DNA of 64,000 nucleotides, from IMG/VR virus record IMGVR_UViG_3300002498_000005, positions 36,349 through 100,348 of that record; one strand, given 5' to 3'. Positions 3,673 to 62,483 of the stretch are shown here, one piece after another; the first letter of the stretch is position 1, and every line of letters begins with the position of its first letter. Source of the DNA: a virus. Below the pieces are notes generated by a model that saw nothing but the letters and a program-made list of their open reading frames with translations, ran no database searches and had not been told where the DNA came from. The position numbers and the translations under genes are program-made.

Positions 3673-4254
3673 TTGAGTAGTAGTTATTCATACATATTAA
3701 AAAATTTTAAAGGTAAATATAATTTGTCAGTGCCATATGATTTAGAAAAAAACGAGTTCCCCGTTGAGATAGATGGAGAATACAGCAATTATTATGACAT
3801 ACGGATAGACTGCCGTAAGGGTTTTATATATCATGCGGGGCAATCTACGTTGATGGCATGTTTTGACACTATAAATTTACGGAATAGAGTGCTAAAACAA
3901 TTAGACCCATCTATCATTATAGAGGCTGAAAAAAATTGGTATGATTTTTCGTTTGATGCGAAAGACATAGAGCCAGTGGCAAAAGCTATGCAAGCAAAGA
4001 TATCACACAAAAATCGAAGTCCGTATAGCGTGAAGAATTTACCCCAATATGTTCCTAATAACGCATATTTATGCAAACAAGTTTCCAAGTTTATAATTGA
4101 TAAATATGGGATAGGTCAATACAACAAGGTCATGCAAAAGTATTTCCGCAAATATAAGATTAAGTATAAAAAAGAAGGTCGTCTAAAATATATTCACATT
4201 TTGGACAAGCATAATAAACTACAAGAGGTGCTCGATGACATCAATAAATTATAA
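3673..4254 (+). CDS. Hypothetical phage protein
   Basis: Long ORF; TTG start after AGGAGG and downstream of the promoter (ORF track starts at 3571). Confidence 0.6.
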   Translation: MSSSYSYILKNFKGKYNLSVPYDLEKNEFPVEIDGEYSNYYDIRIDCRKGFIYHAGQSTLMACFDTINLRNRVLKQLDPSIIIEAEKNWYDFSFDAKDIEPVAKAMQAKISHKNRSPYSVKNLPQYVPNNAYLCKQVSKFIIDKYGIGQYNKVMQKYFRKYKIKYKKEGRLKYIHILDKHNKLQEVLDDINKL

Positions 4255-5368
4255 TATCAAAACTGTAGAGGCGCGCATTAGAAGGGTTAATAAAATATTA
4301 GAAGAAAATGAAGATAGCATACAGAGATATTTTGATAATGTGTTTCTTAATAAAGCGACTAAAATCCCATATCATTATTTATTGAATCAATTATCAAATT
4401 ATATTTTATATGACAAGCCATCCTCTCCATACAAAAAAGAGATGCAAGACAAATTTGAAAATTCAGCACTTGGATTGCACGGAGATGGAGAACCATATTA
4501 TTTAAAAGATAAAATAACAATTGAGGAAAAAGATTTGGACATTCCAGAGATAAAAGAGAAGCAAGACCTAATAAATGCCCTAAAAACACAAAAAAAATGG
4601 GCAAAAGAGGCTAAATATGACCAAATATTGATAAAAGAGAGCAAATTACCCCCATTGCGGGCACATTCTATCTGCTGTGTGCCACAATATGAGCAAATTT
4701 TTGAGTTTGAGGAAGAAGATCAGCAATCATATTATTGCCAAGAAAATGAAGATGTGGATATATTTGAAATTGATACTACAAATAATCCTCTCAATTTAGA
4801 CTTATTTGACGAGGATAATTGGAATAAGATTATTTTAAGAGTTCTGCCGTACCAAAATCAAGTTGGCAGTAGAGTGGACAAGCTGGTGACAATTTTTAAT
4901 AAAGTATATCCGCTTTGTGAATTTCGGAAAGTTGAAAGAGATATAATACGGATTTTCCAAGAGTCTAAAAAGAAAGATTATGGATATGAAATTGTCAAAA
5001 ATATTGATGTATCCAAAAAACTTGGCATAGACCAAAATGCGGTCAGTCGCAACATCCAATCGATTTGCAAAAAGCTTTGCGATGCCTATGAGGAATTATT
5101 TACTGATTATTATTACACATTTTTAGTTAAAGGCACTTATAAAAAATGCTCAAAATGTGGAGAAAACAAAATTATTCAAAAATATCATAAGAATAGCAAT
5201 TCGGCAGATGGTCGTAAATCTATTTGTACAGATTGCTTAAAGGCAATGTACAAAGTGTGTAATATATGCGAAGAAAATTTAAACATTGATGAATTTGCTT
5301 TAGATAAAAACACAAAAGATGGGCACAAAAGTTACTGTAAAACCTGTGACGCAAACCGTAAAAAATAA
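4235..5368 (+). CDS. Sigma-region-4-like HTH protein with two C-terminal Zn-ribbon repeats (putative transcription factor)
   Basis: IDVSKKLGIDQNAVSRNIQSICKKL HTH; CSKC..CTDC and CNIC..CKTC. Confidence 0.5.
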   Translation: MTSINYNIKTVEARIRRVNKILEENEDSIQRYFDNVFLNKATKIPYHYLLNQLSNYILYDKPSSPYKKEMQDKFENSALGLHGDGEPYYLKDKITIEEKDLDIPEIKEKQDLINALKTQKKWAKEAKYDQILIKESKLPPLRAHSICCVPQYEQIFEFEEEDQQSYYCQENEDVDIFEIDTTNNPLNLDLFDEDNWNKIILRVLPYQNQVGSRVDKLVTIFNKVYPLCEFRKVERDIIRIFQESKKKDYGYEIVKNIDVSKKLGIDQNAVSRNIQSICKKLCDAYEELFTDYYYTFLVKGTYKKCSKCGENKIIQKYHKNSNSADGRKSICTDCLKAMYKVCNICEENLNIDEFALDKNTKDGHKSYCKTCDANRKK

Positions 5369-41022: not shown

Positions 41023-41733
41023 ATGGTAGATTTATTAACAATACTAAATACTATTAATAACTATGGAATACCACTACTAATATCGGGAATGGTTCTTTTG
41101 GCTGTATGGGAAGGCATCAAATTTGTAATTGCTAAACTTAAAAGAGAATCAGACAGTCAACAAAAACAGGTAAATATGCTAACCGATATGCTTTTTAAAG
41201 TCGTAGAAGAAAAATTTGGATTAGTAAATCCTATAGACTTTTCTAACGATCCTCATACCGATAAGATTGAAGACCTTTTAAATGCTCTATTACAAGAAAC
41301 TGATTGTGATTGTTGTAGTGTTTTTTCCTATCATAATGGTGGAACAGATATGCTGGGAGTGCCATTTCAAAAAATGTCGTGCACAAACCAAAAGGTTAGG
41401 ATGGGTATTTCACCAACTGCAAATAATTTTCAAGCTATGTATAAGTCTAGCCTTCATTATATAGTATCAGCAATAAAGAATACTAAGCATTGTTATATTG
41501 ATGATATAGAAACACTTAAATCTATTGATTACGGAGTATATGATATTTTAAAACAGAACAATATTAAGAGTATGTATTGTGAAGGAATAATGAATTTAAG
41601 CGGAGTAATTATAGGGTATGTGGCAATTAGTTACAAAATAACCCCCATTTCAAAAGATGATGTAGATCAGACAGTGGCTACTCTGAAACAGTTTGCTCAT
41701 TTTATTGAAGGTGTTCGGATAGCAAAAGAATAA
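41023..41733 (+). CDS. Membrane protein with GAF-like domain (lysis module)
   Basis: N-terminal TM; VFSYHNGG..PFQKMSCT...IKSMYC..I....G.IIGYVAISY. Confidence 0.6.
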   Translation: MVDLLTILNTINNYGIPLLISGMVLLAVWEGIKFVIAKLKRESDSQQKQVNMLTDMLFKVVEEKFGLVNPIDFSNDPHTDKIEDLLNALLQETDCDCCSVFSYHNGGTDMLGVPFQKMSCTNQKVRMGISPTANNFQAMYKSSLHYIVSAIKNTKHCYIDDIETLKSIDYGVYDILKQNNIKSMYCEGIMNLSGVIIGYVAISYKITPISKDDVDQTVATLKQFAHFIEGVRIAKE

Positions 41734-41761
41734 TACAATTTTTACCTTATAAATAAGGTTT

Positions 41762-41801
41762 AAGGCTACTATACAGTAATATGTATAGTAGCCTTTTTTT
41801 T
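41762..41801. terminator. Terminator at the convergence of the two genome arms (possibly bidirectional)
   Basis: AAGGCTACTATACA-GTAATA-TGTATAGTAGCCTT-TTTTT. Confidence 0.85.
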
Positions 41802-42219
41802 ATAGTATTTGCTGGTAATAGTCGTGGATATATTCTACTGCTTCAGACATTGTAGTGCAAAATTTAGTTACGTGATTTTTTATCCATGGATGATTATCGG
41901 TTGTGCCGAAAGCAATCACTGGCTTATGTAGTATTCTGTCTGTATAAAATGATTCAATTGCAGTGCCTATACTATCAGGATAATCTAAATTTATTAATAA
42001 AATATCGCTATGGTCGAGCGCTATTAAATCAAAATTTTCACATTCCTTATCAGTAAAAGATTCTGGGTTCATATTAAAATTATAGAAGTCAACTGGGTTA
42101 ATAGTTTTTATGTCGTATACTTCTAATAGTCTTGTTGCTTCACTACGCCACATATTCATAGTATTAAAATCTAGCCCAGTCATTTTTCCGCCGAGATAGC
42201 ATGTAATTTTTTTATTCAT
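41800..42219 (-). CDS. Nucleoside 2-deoxyribosyltransferase-like protein
   Basis: YLGGKM, NP, D..SDIL, SIGTAIE. Confidence 0.75.
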   Translation of the reverse strand: MNKKITCYLGGKMTGLDFNTMNMWRSEATRLLEVYDIKTINPVDFYNFNMNPESFTDKECENFDLIALDHSDILLINLDYPDSIGTAIESFYTDRILHKPVIAFGTTDNHPWIKNHVTKFCTTMSEAVEYIHDYYQQIL

Positions 42220-42248
42220 AAAACACCCCTTTAATTAAAACTATAATT

Positions 42249-42617
42249 TTATTCTTTAATATCTTTTTTACTTAAATAATGAGGCAAGTCATCCCATTGC
42301 AATTCATCTAATTCTTGATGATGCACTATAGCTGCCAAATTCCAAATACAAGCAATGAGATGATCTTCGTCTTCACATCCCATTTTAAGTTGTTCTAAAT
42401 GTCTTTCTGCCGAATTAAGGTATCTTGAAAATGGCATACCTTTCTCCCAATTCCTATCTGCATATTTATTAGCCCCTCTTTCAAAATGAATAGCTAATCT
42501 TTTGATAAAAAATGGACTAATAAGATCATATCTTCCCTTCCCTGTTTCGGGTTCTCTCATTGCATTATTCTCACCAAAAGACATTCTTTTACCACTATCT
42601 TTTAATTTATCGTTCAT
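42249..42617 (-). CDS. dATP/dGTP diphosphohydrolase domain protein (DUF5664)
   Basis: KGRYDLISP..GANKYADRNWEKG..RH..EDHL..WN. Confidence 0.8.
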   Translation of the reverse strand: MNDKLKDSGKRMSFGENNAMREPETGKGRYDLISPFFIKRLAIHFERGANKYADRNWEKGMPFSRYLNSAERHLEQLKMGCEDEDHLIACIWNLAAIVHHQELDELQWDDLPHYLSKKDIKE

Positions 42618-43337
42618 TTATTTTCTTACTTCCTTTAATAAAAAATTATTCGGATTTAAATAGTCATATTTTATTTCAGCCCTATATCTCTCTAAAACCG
42701 CTTCTTCAAATGTATCAAATTGTCCAATATATACACGATTATATTTATTCCCTATTCGTACAGTCCATTTATGAGTGTCTTTACGATAGTGAACGCCCGA
42801 AACTCCCGATGTATTGTTTTTATGTGTTGAAATATTATGCGAATTAATTAAATTATTACAGGGTCTTAAATTAGTTTCTCTATTGTCTAGGGGGTTACGG
42901 TTAATGTGGTCAACAGTAACCTGTGGATTATCAACCACATTTAAAATAAATCGATGCATTAATATTAATTTATTGTTGATGAAAGCATATGGATATGTTC
43001 GATATTTATCTGCCATCCAAGTATATTTTAGAAGTTGTGATAAATTTTTAGTGTCTACTAAAATTTCTGCTTGTTTTTTAGTATATATAATTGCAGTGTC
43101 ATTATTTATAATTTTATAAGTATTTATATATTTTTGTACGCCTTTTAATTTTGATTCATGTATTAAACAACCACAACTCTTAGTTTCTCCCCTTAATAGC
43201 AAACCAGCTCTTGCTTCTTTTTGATTGCCACAATCACACTGACATAGCCAATATGATTCTGAATTTCTAGTGCCAAGATATTTTATTGTAGTTAATTTCC
43301 CAAATTTTTGACCTAATAAATTTCTCCAACGACTAAT
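42618..43337 (-). CDS. HNH-AP2 homing endonuclease (ATT start)
   Basis: Frame open to ATT 8 nt after GAGGTG; LLGQKFGKLT..CQCDCG..SCGC, MHR..DHINRNPLDNR..N, NTSGVSGV. Confidence 0.8.
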   Translation of the reverse strand: MSRWRNLLGQKFGKLTTIKYLGTRNSESYWLCQCDCGNQKEARAGLLLRGETKSCGCLIHESKLKGVQKYINTYKIINNDTAIIYTKKQAEILVDTKNLSQLLKYTWMADKYRTYPYAFINNKLILMHRFILNVVDNPQVTVDHINRNPLDNRETNLRPCNNLINSHNISTHKNNTSGVSGVHYRKDTHKWTVRIGNKYNRVYIGQFDTFEEAVLERYRAEIKYDYLNPNNFLLKEVRK

Positions 43338-43339
43338 TT

Positions 43340-44017
43340 TTAATTCACCTCTATATCATCAAATATAATTGGTATTATTTTTTTAAATTCCGTAAGCATC
43401 GGAATAGCGATTTCGCGCATTTGTGGATGGCTTGCTTTTGCTGTGCGAAGTTTAAAAAAGTGGCGCCATTCCCTCAAATCCATTGTCATTATAATTTCTG
43501 TTTTTAATGCGTTAGGCAATACTGATCTTGCTTGTTCTGGCTTCCAACCAGCACTTCGTAAACTTTTATAAGTATCTTCAGCACGGCACATAGCATTTAT
43601 CCAATTAATCTCGGAGCTGTCTATTTGTGCAAGTTTTGTGCCAATTATTATTTCATAAAAATCATTAGGCGTAAAGTTAGTATAATCGTTTTCAAACCAA
43701 CATGGTTGAATAAAAGTAACTTCGCCCTTATCATAATCACAATAACGAGTGCTTTCTTGACTATAGCTTGCAATCCTATGCCTTACGATTTCGTGGCTTA
43801 CTCCTCTATCGCATATTACACGCACAGATATTTTTTCATGTTCAATAACGGATTCATGCCCTCGTTTTATTATGCTTGATATAAATTTAGTTGCGCTATC
43901 TTCTGTAGTTTTATCTTCACTCTTATAGCAAATTCTGGCGGCTATTTCAATATTTTTTAACATTTGAGCGCCATTAACTTGTCCAATGATTTCAAAGCTG
44001 GGTTTAATTAATTTCAT
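43340..44017 (-). CDS. thyX: Flavin-dependent thymidylate synthase
   Basis: GHESVIEH, RHRIASYSQESTRY, ARSVLP. Confidence 0.95.
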   Translation of the reverse strand: MKLIKPSFEIIGQVNGAQMLKNIEIAARICYKSEDKTTEDSATKFISSIIKRGHESVIEHEKISVRVICDRGVSHEIVRHRIASYSQESTRYCDYDKGEVTFIQPCWFENDYTNFTPNDFYEIIIGTKLAQIDSSEINWINAMCRAEDTYKSLRSAGWKPEQARSVLPNALKTEIIMTMDLREWRHFFKLRTAKASHPQMREIAIPMLTEFKKIIPIIFDDIEVN

Positions 44018-44030
44018 TAAATTTCTCCTT

Positions 44031-44495
44031 TTATTTAATATTAGAACTCCCGAATCCACCGATACGTTCGTTATTAATCGGATTATCCGTGTCAGTTGTT
44101 AAATATTTACTAAATTTTGCTTGTGCAATTCTATCTCCAATTTTAATTTCAAAAGGTAGCCTACCATTATTAGCTAATACAATACCAATATTGCCATCAT
44201 TTTTTGGGTTTTCATAATAAGAGGAGTCTACCCAACCAATGGTGTTTGCAATGACAATATCAAATTTAGCGCCGTTACCAGAGCGAGTATTTACTTCTAG
44301 TATTTCATCTGGCATCATACGTGCTTTTATATCAGTCCATATTGTACGTTTAGTACCAGCCCTTATAATTATATCAACTGGAGAGTAGATATCGTACCCT
44401 GCCGAGCGTGGGTCTGCCCTACGTGGCATCATAAATTCAATTTCTGGTTGTTGTTTGGATTCTTCTTTTACTGGTTCAAAATCTCTTTGTGTCAT
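44031..44495 (-). CDS. dut: Trimeric dUTPase
   Basis: AGYDI, RSG, GWVDSSY, GDRIAQ, RIGGFGSS. Confidence 0.93.
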   Translation of the reverse strand: MTQRDFEPVKEESKQQPEIEFMMPRRADPRSAGYDIYSPVDIIIRAGTKRTIWTDIKARMMPDEILEVNTRSGNGAKFDIVIANTIGWVDSSYYENPKNDGNIGIVLANNGRLPFEIKIGDRIAQAKFSKYLTTDTDNPINNERIGGFGSSNIK

Positions 44496-44510
44496 TTTAT
44501 CGTCCTTTCG

Positions 44511-44696
44511 CTATATAATTTTAGCTTTAACTTCGCTTATGGTGTCATATTTTTCATCCATAAATAAATTTAAATCATGCTCCAATATTTTGGCGAAGCC
44601 GTCTTCTATTTGTTTTCTACTTAGATGATCGGCTTTAGCATCTGCAAATGTATCATATTGGGTTGTTTCATAAACAAATGTGCATTTAATCTTCAA
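44511..44696 (-). CDS. Hypothetical protein
   Basis: GAGGG RBS, TTG start. Confidence 0.5.
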   Translation of the reverse strand: MKIKCTFVYETTQYDTFADAKADHLSRKQIEDGFAKILEHDLNLFMDEKYDTISEVKAKII

Positions 44697-44723
44697 TATA
44701 ATCCCTCATTTAAAATTCATGTT

Positions 44724-44837
44724 TTATTTTTTTATTGCTCGAATAATAGCTTCAATTCCTTCGAGTACCGCTGTGATTAACATAAGAAATCCTACGAATA
44801 TCCAAAAATTTGAAAATATAAATTGTATAAATTCCAT
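44724..44837 (-). CDS. 37-aa single-TM peptide
   Basis: GAGG RBS; MEFIQFIFSNFWIFVGFLMLITAVLEGIEAIIRAIKK; not in the ORF track. Confidence 0.6.
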   Translation of the reverse strand: MEFIQFIFSNFWIFVGFLMLITAVLEGIEAIIRAIKK

Positions 44838-44878
44838 TATTTTACCTCATTTAAAACTGTCATTTTATTCATATTTTT

Positions 44879-44926
44879 ATACCATATATAGTATGCCTAC
44901 ATTTATAATACTACCATATATAGTAT
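44879..44926. promoter_or_regulatory. Tandem NrdR boxes upstream of the dut/thyX cluster
   Basis: ATACCATATATAGTAT and CTACCATATATAGTAT, 32 bp apart. Confidence 0.75.
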
Positions 44927-44930
44927 AGCA

Positions 44931-45101
44931 TTATCTATTTTTTTCTGTGCCACCATTATTTTTTATATAGTCTTTTAATTCTTGGGAAAATTCATGGATT
45001 AAACAAACTGCTTCCCAACCTTTGTTTTTAGTACATATAGCTATCTGGGTTTCGTTAATAGGAATAGTTCCTCCACATAAAGGGTAAATAGATGTTATCA
45101 T
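44931..45101 (-). CDS. Hypothetical protein
   Basis: GGGAG RBS. Confidence 0.45.
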   Translation of the reverse strand: MITSIYPLCGGTIPINETQIAICTKNKGWEAVCLIHEFSQELKDYIKNNGGTEKNR

Positions 45102-45106
45102 TTTTT

Positions 45107-45400
45107 TTACTCCCAACGCCTTCGTCTTTTTTTATTGTGCTGAGGATTGTCACAGTTGCATTTCTTCATAAGTATTTGGTCAGCTTCTAATCTCCCTAAG
45201 CTTAATTCATATCCTCTAATGTTTATTTCCATAGGGTCACCAAGTGGAGCCACTTTACGCATTGTAATTTTTGTGTCGGGCGTTATTCCCATTTCCATAA
45301 GTCTTTTTTTGATTTGGGGTGAGCCACCTACACTTTGTACTATTCCATATTCTGATGGCTTTAATTTACTCAAAGTAATCAACACGCCGTTATTATTCAT
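45107..45400 (-). CDS. feoA: FeoA-domain protein
   Basis: KRLMEMGITP..I....APLGDPMEINIRGYELSL. Confidence 0.88.
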   Translation of the reverse strand: MNNNGVLITLSKLKPSEYGIVQSVGGSPQIKKRLMEMGITPDTKITMRKVAPLGDPMEINIRGYELSLGRLEADQILMKKCNCDNPQHNKKRRRRWE

Positions 45401-45476
45401 TCTTTGGTATCCTTTTTAAAATAATCATTTAATTTATAAATAATTATTTCTGCTTTTTTGTGCTATTACCTATATT

Positions 45477-45845
45477 TTATTTTTTAGCCCATTCACTATA
45501 AACATTTACGAGATGGGGAAAAGTTTTACCATCAAAGAATGTTTGATAATCATTGTCTTCATTAAATAATATAATGGCGCGTTCGTAATTCTCTTTAAAT
45601 CTTTCTTGGTTAACGTCATGCTTCAAGTATCTGGAACATGCTTCATCCATAACTCCCAACAGACTACTGCGAGCAGACGTTAAAAGTCTCCCGTAAAAAT
45701 CTTTATGAATACTATCTGCTAGTTCGTATTTTTCAACCTTATCTTCAACGTTTTGTACGGCGCTAAATATCAAGGCAGATATTTGATTTTCATTTTGGGA
45801 TTTTGTGTATTGTTCCAATAGAGAATATATTTTTTTATTAAACAT
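45477..45845 (-). CDS. Hypothetical protein
   Basis: AGGGG RBS, 122 aa. Confidence 0.6.
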   Translation of the reverse strand: MFNKKIYSLLEQYTKSQNENQISALIFSAVQNVEDKVEKYELADSIHKDFYGRLLTSARSSLLGVMDEACSRYLKHDVNQERFKENYERAIILFNEDNDYQTFFDGKTFPHLVNVYSEWAKK

Positions 45846-45881
45846 TATTTTGATTTCCCCTTTCTAATTAAAATCTAACTT

Positions 45882-46577
45882 TTATTTACTTAATGGGATA
45901 TTATCATATTCTAATAATTCTTTCCTAATATATTTAGCTTCAGCATTCTCTCTAGCATGTACCGCATCTTCAAAATATTTAAACGAGCCTAAATAAATTT
46001 CTTGTTTATTTATTTTAATTCTTGCTCTCCATTTTTGTGATTGCTTTTGCCAATCAACGCCCTTTGCCCCACTATTGTTATGTTTAGATAATTTTGCCGT
46101 TAATGCATTTTCAATATTGGTAACATATTTTAAATTACATCTTCTATTGTCCCATTCGCATTTATTTAAATGATGAATAATAGAATTTGGGCTATCCATA
46201 ATCAATTTGTGGAGTTTGACATTTTTACCTTGTATTCTCGTTATGACATACTTATCAAAATCTAAATACCAATTATGCTCTTTAACTAAATTTAAGTCCT
46301 GAATGTCAAAATAAAAAACGTCGTTAGTATCAGTAATCCCCACACAATAATTATCCTTAATTAGGATTTTTGTTTCTCCTACCGAATTTCTTTTCCTTGT
46401 TTTATAAAGACAGCCACATGATTTAATTCTGCCACTCGTAAGATGTGATGCTCTAACTGATTTAATTGTATGGTTTTCGCATAAGCATTGACAAATATAA
46501 TAATATTTTTTTGTGTCATCTTGACTAATTACTTGGAGATTTCCGAAAATGTCTCCGATTTTAATTATTTTTTCTAT
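45882..46577 (-). CDS. HNH-AP2 homing endonuclease (ATA start)
   Basis: Frame open to ATA after GAGGG; IGDIFGNLQV..CQC.C..SCGC, LHK..HH....DNRRCN, NNSGAKGV. Confidence 0.8.
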   Translation of the reverse strand: MEKIIKIGDIFGNLQVISQDDTKKYYYICQCLCENHTIKSVRASHLTSGRIKSCGCLYKTRKRNSVGETKILIKDNYCVGITDTNDVFYFDIQDLNLVKEHNWYLDFDKYVITRIQGKNVKLHKLIMDSPNSIIHHLNKCEWDNRRCNLKYVTNIENALTAKLSKHNNSGAKGVDWQKQSQKWRARIKINKQEIYLGSFKYFEDAVHARENAEAKYIRKELLEYDNIPLSK

Positions 46578-46586
46578 ATTTATCCC

Positions 46587-47180
46587 TCACTTGCTACTTA
46601 GTGGCACATCAAAATCGTGGGTGACACATGGTCTACTCACCACGTAATCACACATAAATACAAATTTTTGGATAGCTTTCTGTGGATATGGTAACACATC
46701 TTTCCCCGACCTATAGTCTTGCGTATAACACCCCATATGAGTCTCTATCAATGACATAATTTTATTAAAAGATTCTTGATCTAATATTTCTTTTATATCG
46801 TCTTGTTGCTTACAAAATGTAACCATTTCTAGGGGATGAGTAGCAATAGAATATTTTTGTTGTATAATCCCGCTTTTTACACCATCATGTAGAATTAGTG
46901 CAGACGTAATCATATCTTTTTCTATATCCGAATACCTGTCCCCAAACATGGGGCACCTGAGCATTTCTTGAGCAAATCTAACTGCCGCCCTCACATGTAA
47001 TACTAGTCCGCCAGCTTCTCTTGCAAATGCTGGATGAAATTTGTTTGTGCTACTTGCACTCACCTCAAAAAAATAATCTGGCAATTTTCCAATCATTTGA
47101 GTAGTAAATTCTCGAATTTGTTCATTTTTAATATAATTTAATTCTGATTTGAAACATTGAATTTTTTCTTCTGATTTCAT
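46587..47180 (-). CDS. HD-domain phosphohydrolase
   Basis: GGLVLH, LILHD, HP, THMG, CDY. Confidence 0.85.
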   Translation of the reverse strand: MKSEEKIQCFKSELNYIKNEQIREFTTQMIGKLPDYFFEVSASSTNKFHPAFAREAGGLVLHVRAAVRFAQEMLRCPMFGDRYSDIEKDMITSALILHDGVKSGIIQQKYSIATHPLEMVTFCKQQDDIKEILDQESFNKIMSLIETHMGCYTQDYRSGKDVLPYPQKAIQKFVFMCDYVVSRPCVTHDFDVPLSSK

Positions 47181-47878
47181 TATTTCTCCTTCAATTGTAA
47201 TGTGTTTTGGAATTCTCCAAATATTTTTATTTCTGCTTCTATTCTCGCTTTATATGCGGACTCAAAATCATTAAATCTTCCTAATTTAATGTTTTTATTA
47301 TTTTCTGTAATATATGCACACCATTTACCCGTGCTTTCCTTACAAACACCTGTTTTGCCACTTTTATTATTGATGGCTAAATTTTTATTCATAGTATTTT
47401 CTCTACATGTACATGCTCTTAAATTTGATTTGCGATTATTAGTTAAATCATGATCTATGTGGTCTATAAAAACTTTAGAATTTTTAACATCCATTATTAA
47501 GCGATGAAGGGCTATATTTTTGTGTGATTTATTAGCATATACATAACCGTCTCCGCCATGTACCGACCAATAATAATTTTTAATTTTTATATAATCTTCT
47601 TTATCAATTATAAAACTTCTATTATATTCATCATAAACTAAACAGTCATTTCCGTTAAATATATACTGATTATTTTTTCTTTTTTGATTGTTTACTTCTT
47701 TTTTATAGCAACCACAGGACTTTGTTATTCCCCTAGTAAAATTATTTCGTCTAACAATAACTTCCTTACCACAATCACAAATACATCGCCAATATGACGC
47801 CTCATTATATATGTGCGAAAATCCTACAACGGTTAATCTATTAAATTTTTGCCCTGTTAAATCTATAATCTTTCCTAT
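47180..47878 (-). CDS. HNH-AP2 homing endonuclease (ATA start)
   Basis: Frame open to ATA 9 nt after GGAGG; GKIIDLTGQKFNRLTV..CICDCG..SCGC, LHR..DHIDH....NRKSNLR. Confidence 0.82.
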   Translation of the reverse strand: MGKIIDLTGQKFNRLTVVGFSHIYNEASYWRCICDCGKEVIVRRNNFTRGITKSCGCYKKEVNNQKRKNNQYIFNGNDCLVYDEYNRSFIIDKEDYIKIKNYYWSVHGGDGYVYANKSHKNIALHRLIMDVKNSKVFIDHIDHDLTNNRKSNLRACTCRENTMNKNLAINNKSGKTGVCKESTGKWCAYITENNKNIKLGRFNDFESAYKARIEAEIKIFGEFQNTLQLKEK

Positions 47879-47910
47879 TTCGATTAACCTCCATAAATTA
47901 TTCTATACAT

Positions 47911-47940
47911 ATTATACCATATAAATAGTATAATTGTCAA
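47911..47940 (-). promoter_or_regulatory. Sigma-A promoter
   Basis: TTGACA-18 bp-TATAAT with extended -10 TG on the minus strand. Confidence 0.7.
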
Positions 47941-47948
47941 TACTTTCA

Positions 47949-48590
47949 TTATATGCTAATAAATTCATTGGCATAATATGGAGTATTTTTATGATACTTA
48001 TTATTCAATCCAGCAATATATTTTTTATTGTCCTCGAACACATCTAAATCTAGAAATGGATATTGCACACTTCTAATTTGACTATATCCACTATCAGATT
48101 CTACAGTAAATTCAACGGATTGCGCCATTTTGTTGACGTCAACAACTTCACCGAGTGTTAATTTAATTATCTCTGCATCGCCCTCGCTGTCGATGTATTG
48201 GTAAGGAAGCTTCATATCCGTGTGAAAACCATCTATTAAATGTCTTATTTTACGCATTTTTTCTGGGAAGCAACCATTTGTATTAACAATAATCAAACCG
48301 TCGTAATAGGCTTTTAAATCTTCTAAAAACACCGCTATATCACTAGATTTATTTAAAAGGAATTCGCCACCACTTAATATGATGGCGTCTGATAAATATC
48401 CGTTTTGTTTGACTTGAGATAAAATATACATTTTATCACATGTTTCTGTCTCATTTACATCACTTACAAGTGCTTTATAATTAAAACACTTGTAGCAATG
48501 TAAGTTACAACCAATAGTATTGATTATTAAAGAAGTGTGATTAGGTAGGTCAACAAAACTTCGTATAATGTTTTTACTGAATAACATCAT
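47949..48590 (-). CDS. nrdG: Anaerobic RNR activase (radical SAM)
   Basis: GCNLHCYKCFN, LSGGE, NTNG; coupled to nrdD. Confidence 0.85.
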   Translation of the reverse strand: MMLFSKNIIRSFVDLPNHTSLIINTIGCNLHCYKCFNYKALVSDVNETETCDKMYILSQVKQNGYLSDAIILSGGEFLLNKSSDIAVFLEDLKAYYDGLIIVNTNGCFPEKMRKIRHLIDGFHTDMKLPYQYIDSEGDAEIIKLTLGEVVDVNKMAQSVEFTVESDSGYSQIRSVQYPFLDLDVFEDNKKYIAGLNNKYHKNTPYYANEFISI

Positions 48591-50523
48591 TTATATCTTC
48601 TTCCTTAACTCTTTTACGGGTTGTCCAATCTAATCTTCTTGACTTAGACCAGAAATTATATTTACCTCTATAAATACCAGTTGCCGATACTTCAAGACTT
48701 TTCCTAGCTATCATTTTTACATACCCTATTACCCTTGAAAATGTTGCTATATCGTTACTGTGACATTTTGGGCATTCTTTTATATTGGCACCATCTTCAG
48801 CTACTATCATAGTTTTGCAAGACATACAAGAAGTTATAGTAGGAGTTAAAGTTATATAAATAATAGGCTTTTCAAATAATTTTGATAGATACTTAGCAAG
48901 TTGTTTTGGTGGAACTTTGCTTTCAATAAAGTTATGTAGTATGCTACCGCTTGTATAATAACTTTGAAATTCAGCAGAATTTTCTACTTGATTAATAAAG
49001 CTTTCCTCTGAGAATGGAATCATACAACCCGATGTTAAATATACATCTTCACCTTTACCTTGCACAAAAATATTCTTATCATGATTTTTAGCGTATTTTA
49101 AATCATGTCTTGCCAATTTTATTCCTGCATTTTCGGCTGGGGAAGCTTCAATACCGCAAGCCACTTTATCTCTTGCTATAAAACTATCAACTACTTTTCT
49201 CATATGTTGCATTAAATCATGTGCTAGTGTTTTGCCTTCTGGATTATTCAAACCTTCTTTATATCCGATATTGATTAATCCTTCATGCATACCAACAACG
49301 CCGAAAACATTAAAATAGTTTTTAAGATTAGTATTGAACGCAAAAAATGTTGGGTACAAATCTTTATGGCTTTCAATCCATTGTCTTTTTGCCATATGTC
49401 CATCTTCTATTAAATTTAAATAATGTGTAATTTTTTCTTTTAATAAATTAATATCATGCCCATATTCAATAAGCAATCTATTCATATTAATATCAATGAC
49501 TTGAATAGCACCTACGTTGCCTACAGAGGAACCAAATATACCACCAGACGACAATCCTTTGAGCAAAGATAAGTCTATTTGAAGTCTGCAACAAAGGCTT
49601 CTGCTAACTGACGGGTCTCTTGCTTGTAGATATGGGTTTAGTTCTTTATAATGTTGATCTTCAAAAGGTTTTGTTCTAAAGTTTTCAAAATAACATCCGC
49701 CCCAGTTATACATTTTATCAAGCAAGTATAAGAACATTTCATTATCAAAATTAAAGTCGTCATCAATTTGGATTGAAACTAATGGGAAAGTAAATGGTAT
49801 GCCCATACCTGTGCCTTGTGCCATTACATCAATAAAAGCTTTGTTTATTCTATCGAAGTATTGTGTTGGTACTTCATTATATTTATAAGTTTGGATTTCT
49901 CCGCCGACTACTACATATTCGTCTTTAATTTCTTCTGAGGGTTTACCAAATTCTAGCGTACAATTTGAAAAACTACTTTCTGACCCAGATCGAAGTGGCA
50001 TATTGAGTTCCCAAATTAGACTTTGCATTTCTTCTTTTAAATCTCTATCTAACCAAATTTGATTAGCTACCGTCTCTTCGTAATGAAGATAAGACGCTAA
50101 TATAGTGGTCATTTGTGCTAACATAACGGCTCCACTAACTTGTTGTGACATTAACACTACTGTGTTGCTAAAATGTCTGAATAGCTTTTTAAGTCTCTTA
50201 GTTGGCGCTGATGGCACCATATTCCATGCGATAGTGGGGATACCCAACCCTGCTATATCTTTGCACCCTATTGATTGACAATAAGAAGAAAGTTGTTTGT
50301 CGTGGATATAAGTTATCCCCTCTTCGTATGAATCGACCAAGTCTTTAGAAAAAATACTATTCATTAAATATTCTTCTTCGGCTTTGTTTGCTATATTTTT
50401 TCTTAAAAGAGGTAATGAATAAACAAAGTTACTATTTTCTCTTTTAAGATAGTCTGATTTTTTATCGTCATCTTCCCCGATAAATTTGTTGATTAATTCC
50501 CCAGTAGTTTGAAACATTCCCAT
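48574..50523 (-). CDS. nrdD: Class III anaerobic ribonucleotide reductase (no ATP cone)
   Basis: YIHD, SYC, FTFP, SLCCRL, PAEN, CxxC..CxxC, SRVIGY glycyl-radical loop. Confidence 0.92.
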   Translation of the reverse strand: MGMFQTTGELINKFIGEDDDKKSDYLKRENSNFVYSLPLLRKNIANKAEEEYLMNSIFSKDLVDSYEEGITYIHDKQLSSYCQSIGCKDIAGLGIPTIAWNMVPSAPTKRLKKLFRHFSNTVVLMSQQVSGAVMLAQMTTILASYLHYEETVANQIWLDRDLKEEMQSLIWELNMPLRSGSESSFSNCTLEFGKPSEEIKDEYVVVGGEIQTYKYNEVPTQYFDRINKAFIDVMAQGTGMGIPFTFPLVSIQIDDDFNFDNEMFLYLLDKMYNWGGCYFENFRTKPFEDQHYKELNPYLQARDPSVSRSLCCRLQIDLSLLKGLSSGGIFGSSVGNVGAIQVIDINMNRLLIEYGHDINLLKEKITHYLNLIEDGHMAKRQWIESHKDLYPTFFAFNTNLKNYFNVFGVVGMHEGLINIGYKEGLNNPEGKTLAHDLMQHMRKVVDSFIARDKVACGIEASPAENAGIKLARHDLKYAKNHDKNIFVQGKGEDVYLTSGCMIPFSEESFINQVENSAEFQSYYTSGSILHNFIESKVPPKQLAKYLSKLFEKPIIYITLTPTITSCMSCKTMIVAEDGANIKECPKCHSNDIATFSRVIGYVKMIARKSLEVSATGIYRGKYNFWSKSRRLDWTTRKRVKEEDINDVIQ

Positions 50524-50538
50524 AGTTGCATATTCCTT

Positions 50539-50724
50539 TCATTTTGTCAAATTAATTAAGTTAAAAATTCTTAATGTATCGTCAGGAGAATAATAATCTT
50601 TTTCTGAATAATTCTCTTCAAATTCATCTTCTTTGTCTTGTGTGTCATTGTTTTTTTTAGATAATGTCCATACAAAAGCTGATATATTATCTTTTAAATC
50701 CCAAGCCGTTAATTCATCATTCAT
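50539..50724 (-). CDS. Hypothetical protein
   Basis: GAGGTG RBS. Confidence 0.5.
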   Translation of the reverse strand: MNDELTAWDLKDNISAFVWTLSKKNNDTQDKEDEFEENYSEKDYYSPDDTLRIFNLINLTK

Positions 50725-61931: not shown

Positions 61932-62483
61932 CTACCCCCTGCCAGCAAACTCTCCATACCACTCTTCTCTCATCTTCTTTGCGAATTTACCCGCTTCGTG
62001 CACATCTTCAAAATGTTTCCATTTGTGATTTTTGCCATTTTGGTCTTGTAATTGCACAATCCAATCTTGAGATTCATTACACCATGAAACGTTTCTATAA
62101 CCAGACTTATTGTTTTTATTTAAGCCGCTCCTATGTTTTAAATTTTCTTTTTGTGTTGTAACTCTTAAATTATTTTTTTTATTATTTAATGGATTATGAT
62201 CTATATGGTCTATTTTATTATTAGCATTGTGTTCGTCCATAATGAGCCTATGTAACACTAAGGTCTTATATTTTGGTTTACCGTTAATCATGCCTAAATA
62301 TTGCATTATTTCCGCATAAAATCCAAATGCGCTTCTATGCCAACCCACATGAATTTTATACCCTATTTTATCAATTTTAGTTAAATCTTCTAAATCAATC
62401 AACACATTATATTTATCGCCATTGCGTCTAATTATATGAAAAATTACTGTATTGCCGATTATTGTATATTTATTTTTTATCAT
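61932..62483 (-). CDS. HNH-AP2 homing endonuclease (ATG start)
   Basis: LHRLIM..DHIDHNPLNN..NLR, NKSGYRNV, YGEFA. Confidence 0.85.
   Translation of the reverse strand: MIKNKYTIIGNTVIFHIIRRNGDKYNVLIDLEDLTKIDKIGYKIHVGWHRSAFGFYAEIMQYLGMINGKPKYKTLVLHRLIMDEHNANNKIDHIDHNPLNNKKNNLRVTTQKENLKHRSGLNKNNKSGYRNVSWCNESQDWIVQLQDQNGKNHKWKHFEDVHEAGKFAKKMREEWYGEFAGRG

Follow-up and report, generated by a model that had tools for sequence, protein, structure and literature searches.

We have analyzed three HNH-AP2 genes, g1, g2 and g3, of an uncultured low-GC phage that is known from an IMG/VR metagenome assembly, and find that they have no canonical start codon ahead of their conserved N-terminal domain. They are probably translated at a low level from AUU or AUA codons; such initiation would damp nuclease output from the highly expressed nucleotide-metabolism operons that harbour them. 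The analysis covers a window of 64,000 nucleotides (nt), positions 36349-100348 of record IMGVR_UViG_3300002498_000005 (100,348 bp, 32% GC, with an estimated completeness of ~67%). All three genes lie on the minus strand of this window, g1 at 42618-43337 (stop codon TAA, 42620-42618), g2 at 45882-46577 and g3 at 47180-47878. They are intact, free-standing genes for predicted homing endonucleases, inserted between conserved genes, and are diverged paralogs with ~35% identity to one another. The order in this region, nrdD-nrdG / g3 / HD / g2 ... dUTPase-thyX / g1, places them among genes of nucleotide metabolism.

When translated, the frame of each gene is open from the upstream stop codon through a conserved motif, G..F..L.(V/T)..CxCxC..SCGC, and no ATG, GTG or TTG precedes this motif, just as an earlier sequence-only reading of this DNA had claimed. 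Counted over the full frame, a canonical codon appears only at codon 46 in g1 (TTG 43202), at codon 79 in g2 (GTG 46343) and at codon 129 in g3 (ATG 47494). The proposed starts are ATT at 43337-43335 for g1, ATA at 46577-46575 for g2 and ATA at 47878-47876 for g3. The resulting products of 239, 231 and 232 amino acids (aa) agree with the consistent lengths of 231-239 aa noted in that reading, and so do the Shine-Dalgarno (SD) sequences GAGGTG (43346-43351), GAGGG (46584-46588) and GGAGG (47888-47892), all on the minus strand, which it had placed 6-9 nt before the starts and which stand at 8, 6 and 9 nt, respectively. The SD energies at these codons are -11.7 (g1), -10.4 (g2) and -10.5 kcal/mol (g3), and the median for the chosen starts of the genome is -9.2; they were calculated for the duplex with a generic Firmicutes-type anti-SD, which may not be that of the host. 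Only 0.8% of random ATA or ATT triplets reach -10 kcal/mol.

Throughout the genome, g1-g3 are the only open reading frames (ORFs) on the locally coding strand in which at least 45 codons stay open ahead of any canonical start. The remaining long start-less ORFs look like antisense shadow frames on the opposite strand. The start-less state is thus found in 3/3 HNH-AP2 genes versus 0/140 other genes (Fisher p=2e-6); starts elsewhere in the genome are ATG (118), TTG (13) and GTG (12). Two simple accounts of such starts were rejected. An alternative genetic code does not apply, since TGA serves as an ordinary stop (18 of 143 genes), and a phage tRNA that decodes an AUA start does not apply either, the sole tRNA of the genome being Thr(UGU), with no initiator-like AUA tRNA.

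The ATT and ATA codons stand where relatives have ATG. Homologs begin with M-(G/S)-K-x-x-D-L-T-G and g3 begins with I-G-K-I-I-D-L-T-G; the initial isoleucine of g1, g2 and g3 aligns with the methionine of the homologs. The closest homolog of g1 (P0002, 239 aa, 59% identical) aligns colinearly with it from the first residue, where M faces I, and roughly half of the first 45 residues of g1 match P0002 by manual count on the alignment, versus 59% overall. On contig L236, nrdD (71% identical) and nrdG (56%) are followed by an HNH gene with an ATG start in the position of g3; on contig L015 an HD gene (45% identical) is followed by an HNH gene with an ATT start, as at g2. Searches turned up no near-identical phage in INPHARED and, for g2 and g3, no close orthologs in IMG/VR. 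Homologs of the three genes also occur on contigs of metagenome-assembled genomes (MAGs) of Clostridia and Lachnospiraceae.

PHROG families 374 and 99 ('HNH endonuclease') match g1-g3 from residue 2-5, with E values of 1e-25 to 1e-41. Matches to Pfam are weaker: g3 scores 28.7 bits to HNH_3, above the cut-off of 24.8, g1 (18.2) and g2 (16.4) fall below it, and the AP2 matches of all three (E values of 3e-6 to 9e-4) are under the gathering score. In the wider alignment A2, residues H128, H144, N152 and R153 of the HNH (His-Me finger) motif, numbered as in g1, do not vary. Conservation in the family is highest at C34, C36 and S54-C55-G56-C57 of the N-terminal domain, which are invariant in 56 sequences; g1-g3 keep all of these, and with them all five cysteines of the domain and the HNH histidines and asparagine. 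This holds also for g2, whose N-terminal domain has diverged furthest. The AlphaFold model of g3 was made from 56 homologs and has a mean predicted local distance difference test (pLDDT) score of 92.6, and residues 1-50 score 90-96. In Foldseek searches with this model the C-terminus resembles the plant AP2 structures TEM1, ERF1 and WRI1 (probability 1.0) and the core resembles I-HmuI (1U3E, probability 0.97); the N-terminal Cys-rich domain had no match in the PDB.

Start codons were surveyed in 239 non-redundant homologs of the N-terminal domain from IMG/VR, GTDB genomes and metagenomes. The genome and metagenome scans were run with a closer alignment, A3, the loci being the best 80 tblastn matches per scan, and starts were called from the position in the profile together with the SD energy. 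The starts are ATG in 168 homologs, TTG in 30, GTG in 16, far upstream in 12, and near-cognate or none in 13. Intact homologs with near-cognate starts are concentrated at low GC, with 9/81 at GC<0.35 versus 2-4/158 above (Fisher p=0.0035). Five genes have a well-placed strong SD, and from the upstream stop to the domain they contain not one canonical codon: L100 (AGAGGTGA, 7 nt, ATA), L245 (AGAGGGA, 7 nt, ATA), L015 (AAAGGAGGTG ahead of ATT), L016b (AAGGAGGAA ahead of ATT) and L253 (ATA or ATT). A further three, L161, L019 and L240, are probably near-cognate cases as well, their sole canonical codon lying inside the SD or lacking an SD; all eight have GC<0.35. The mean SD energy of the strictly start-less genes is -11.9, versus -9.2 in canonical low-GC members (p=0.007). 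A crude and insensitive control on the flanks of the low-GC loci found a first canonical start at least 40 codons in for 1/104 non-HNH ORFs versus 3/70 HNH ORFs.

Near-cognate starts had been described as systematic. That is so within this genome (three of three genes) and not in the family, where they occur in ~11-13% of low-GC members; the survey establishes their recurrence in other low-GC phages, not their conservation. Three of three in one genome, set against a low-GC family rate of 7/52 (p ~0.002), hints at a phage- or host-specific factor.

Several contigs from this survey have features of their own. Contig L016 has two N-domain genes, at 1796-2512 and 3840-4361; one is an HNH-AP2 gene that starts at TTG, and the second has a different C-terminus and the ATT start given above for L016b. 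On a contig of a Clostridia MAG, a non-HNH ORF of 214 codons (L164:671-1312) beside an HNH gene has no ATG, GTG or TTG in its first 79 codons; it may represent a further near-cognate start in the neighbourhood of a homing endonuclease. In human-gut contigs L022-L024, L046 and L049, TAG is found where Q is expected in the motif YWxCQCDCG, and in L025 a stop is found where W is expected. Such in-frame stops at conserved positions suggest stop-codon-recoded phages.

The alternative that best survives is that g1-g3 are recent knock-outs. By this account ATG was lost by third-position changes under AT pressure, and the genes are untranslated and have not yet collected stops or frameshifts. We consider this unlikely, although some points favour it: every nearest relative carries ATG or TTG at this codon, decay is the expected fate of a homing endonuclease gene once it is fixed, and the N-terminal domain of g2 is unusually divergent. 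Decay should, however, strike elsewhere first. Nonsense-generating substitutions outnumber start-destroying ones by ~20:1 per gene, so that the latter make up at most 5% of null substitutions, and three independent first hits at the start codon have p ~1e-4 (indels not counted). The other two frames of the g1-g3 DNA contain 17-40 stops each. The low-GC HNH-AP2 genes comprise 42 intact ones with canonical starts, 7 intact ones with near-cognate starts and 3 that are broken by stops or frameshifts. Decay predicts start-less intact to broken copies at ~1:20 or fewer, and the probability of at least 7 of 10 at a 5% share is 8e-8. The retention of all five Cys ligands and of the HNH His/Asn residues likewise argues against knock-outs, as does the similarity of g1 to P0002 ahead of its first canonical codon, which is about that of the whole protein. 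Leave-one-out profile scores do not differ significantly between near-cognate and canonical genes, either for the N-terminal (p=0.09) or for the C-terminal domain (p=0.40), and the ratio of nonsynonymous to synonymous substitution rates (dN/dS) between L015 (ATT) and L016a (TTG) is 0.34.

A number of observations weigh against the reading that we favour, initiation at AUU and AUA. The anti-SD behind the SD energies is a generic one. Selection of the best 80 tblastn matches may under-sample broken copies. The N-terminal domain of g2 scores under all 47 canonical members, and AT mutation pressure by itself would drive ATG to ATA or ATT. In a phylogeny made with FastTree only, the nearest neighbour of each near-cognate gene is canonical (ATG or TTG), and the start state changes 10 times over 12 rows, as often as with shuffled labels. 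With near-cognate starts scattered in this way among canonical neighbours, the state must arise often and recently; on these sequences, the near-cognate start appears to be labile and repeatedly gained, and no lineage is seen to retain it long.

It is very unlikely that translation begins instead at TTG 43202, GTG 46343 and ATG 47494, with truncated proteins and with the upstream open frames as relics. These codons are the choice of the gene callers, a 194-aa form of g1 is in the database (P0001), and a weak AAGGA precedes GTG 46343. Their SD energies (-3.9, -4.9 and -1.2, respectively), however, lie in the bottom quarter of the starts of the genome, and at ~10% stops the chance that 45, 78 and 128 codons stay open is 9e-3, 3e-4 and 1e-6. 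Moreover, the g3 product from ATG 47494 would have just 8 residues ahead of the HNH motif and would lose 128 residues of a compact and confident fold.

Fusion to the upstream genes is less probable still. Here the N-termini would come from readthrough of the TGA between the HD gene and g2, or from frameshifting from thyX into g1. The arrangement of the genes offers some grounds for this: the HD gene and g2 share one reading frame with a single TGA (46589-46587) between them, which the g2 SD overlaps and which ends 9 nt before the g2 ATA, and the thyX stop TAA (43342-43340) lies between the g1 SD and its ATT, 2 nt before the latter. A shared frame is nevertheless a 1-in-3 coincidence, and probably only that in the case of HD and g2. 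This genome uses TGA as a normal stop, the surrounding sequence has neither an Rfam match nor a significant structure, and the homologs are stand-alone proteins that start at the same codon. No upstream ORF is available to g3, which has its own promoter. The promoter, TTGACA-18-(TG)TATAAT at 47911-47940 on the minus strand, lies directly upstream of g3, and is the sole 12/12 match to the sigma-70-type consensus in 41700-50700. Assembly or sequencing errors that turned ATG into ATA or ATT, conceivable in a metagenome assembly, are the least credible explanation of all: three independent errors confined to the start codons of one gene family would be needed, the same state is found in unrelated assemblies (L100, L245, L015 and L253), and an identical g1 product occurs on a second contig.

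Initiation at AUU and AUA thus remains our preferred reading. We infer that these codons are actually used, that the level of initiation is low, and that so little protein is an advantage or is at any rate tolerated. The AUU or AUA of g1-g3 would be read by initiator tRNA at an optimal distance from a strong SD, which would hold nuclease synthesis to a small fraction of that of the operon neighbours, whose transcription would be unchanged. Ribosomes that terminate 2 and 9 nt upstream of g1 and g2, respectively, may add re-initiation to this. Because it has its own promoter (47940-47911), g3 has a short leader (~26 nt) and no upstream cistron for coupling, and it would depend on de novo initiation. 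No significant hairpin that would sequester the ribosome-binding site (RBS) was found at the three starts (minimum free energies of -3.7 to -9.6 kcal/mol, z scores of -0.28 to -0.68 versus shuffles), and no Rfam family matched near them. This leaves the start codon as the weak element, given SD sequences of high strength and good spacing. On the simplest account the nucleases need or tolerate very little protein, so that ATG drifts or is driven to ATA or ATT under AT pressure and the gene is kept.

The earlier claim of genuine near-cognate starts with damped translation is supported in part, with the homology of the start to ATG, the strong SD, the intact frames and cysteines, the recurrence in other phages and the excess of start-less over broken copies on its side; such starts are nevertheless labile, and not a conserved device. 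A more ambitious version, to which we give a rather small chance, joins the strong SD and the AUU or AUA in a selected and recurrent design by which free-standing homing endonucleases of low-GC phages would decouple their dose from the highly transcribed operons that they parasitise, perhaps in response to initiation factor 3 (IF3). Because IF3 polices near-cognate starts, nuclease synthesis may, under this version, rise only when IF3 is limiting late in infection. In g3, which as first cistron follows a consensus promoter, the strong SD might then also stabilise the operon mRNA by binding ribosomes at its 5' end.

The genome has two other endonuclease genes. The fourth HNH gene (61932-62483, minus strand, 183 aa) was correctly described in the sequence-only reading as lacking the N-terminal Cys domain and using ATG; this codon follows AGGAG. 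A LAGLIDADG endonuclease ORF outside the window (G000:C1:6109-7140, minus strand) has its own promoter, TTGACA..TGGTATAAT, nearly identical to that of g3. Its start is most likely TTG, 11 nt past TAAGGAG (SD energy -12.6). The five endonuclease genes of the genome therefore start with ATT or ATA (three genes), TTG (one) and ATG (one). Amid the nucleotide-metabolism genes there is also a small FeoA-like gene, recognized by eye from its translation, at 45107-45400 of the window.

Gene callers shorten g1, g2 and g3 to 194, 153 and 104 aa or miss the putative N-terminal DNA-binding domain, which would amount to a systematic mis-annotation of homing endonucleases in low-GC phages. Should the near-cognate starts be in use, the start codon would join the known ways of keeping selfish nucleases at a harmless dose, and the genes would offer natural AUA and AUU sites with a strong SD for probing start-codon stringency in Gram-positive hosts.

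In Escherichia coli, AUA, AUU, AUC and CUG initiate at ~0.1-3% of the level of AUG, and the only confirmed natural cases of near-cognate starts are infC and pcnB (bioRxiv 10.1101/063800). These two genes combine an AUU start and an SD with low or regulated initiation, much as is proposed for g1-g3. The infC AUU lies 3 nt past the preceding stop (PMC3592434), which resembles the g1 ATT 2 nt after the thyX stop. The infC AUU is, however, conserved among orthologs and autoregulated by IF3, whereas the nearest relatives of g1-g3 have ATG or TTG; IF3-conditional control of g1-g3 would be an analogy to infC. Homing endonucleases of the T4 family (I-TevI/II/III, segB and mobE) are restrained at translation by RBS hairpins, poor RBS spacing and coupling, and the free-standing endonuclease ORFs of T4 all start with AUG except mobA, which starts with GUG (PMC2988022). 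These nuclease genes too are embedded in nucleotide-metabolism operons, but in g1-g3, which have a strong SD at good spacing and lack a significant hairpin, it is the start codon that is weak.

None of the papers searched describes ATT or ATA starts in phage homing endonucleases. There is nevertheless one such start in GenBank, that of I-TwoI in the nrdE intron of Staphylococcus phage Twort (AF485080.1), where the annotated RBS is at 2492-2495 and the coding sequence runs from ATA 2505, as we have checked in the sequence. I-TwoI shares with g1-g3 an HNH homing endonuclease, a low-GC Gram-positive phage, a ribonucleotide reductase context and the absence of a canonical start before the conserved N-terminus. 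It differs in being a single, intron-encoded gene of another N-terminal architecture, without the CxCxC..SCGC domain and without AP2. The homing endonuclease with an ATA start thus already has a precedent in I-TwoI; what sets the present case apart is the presence of three diverged paralogs in one genome and evidence at the level of the family against simple decay.

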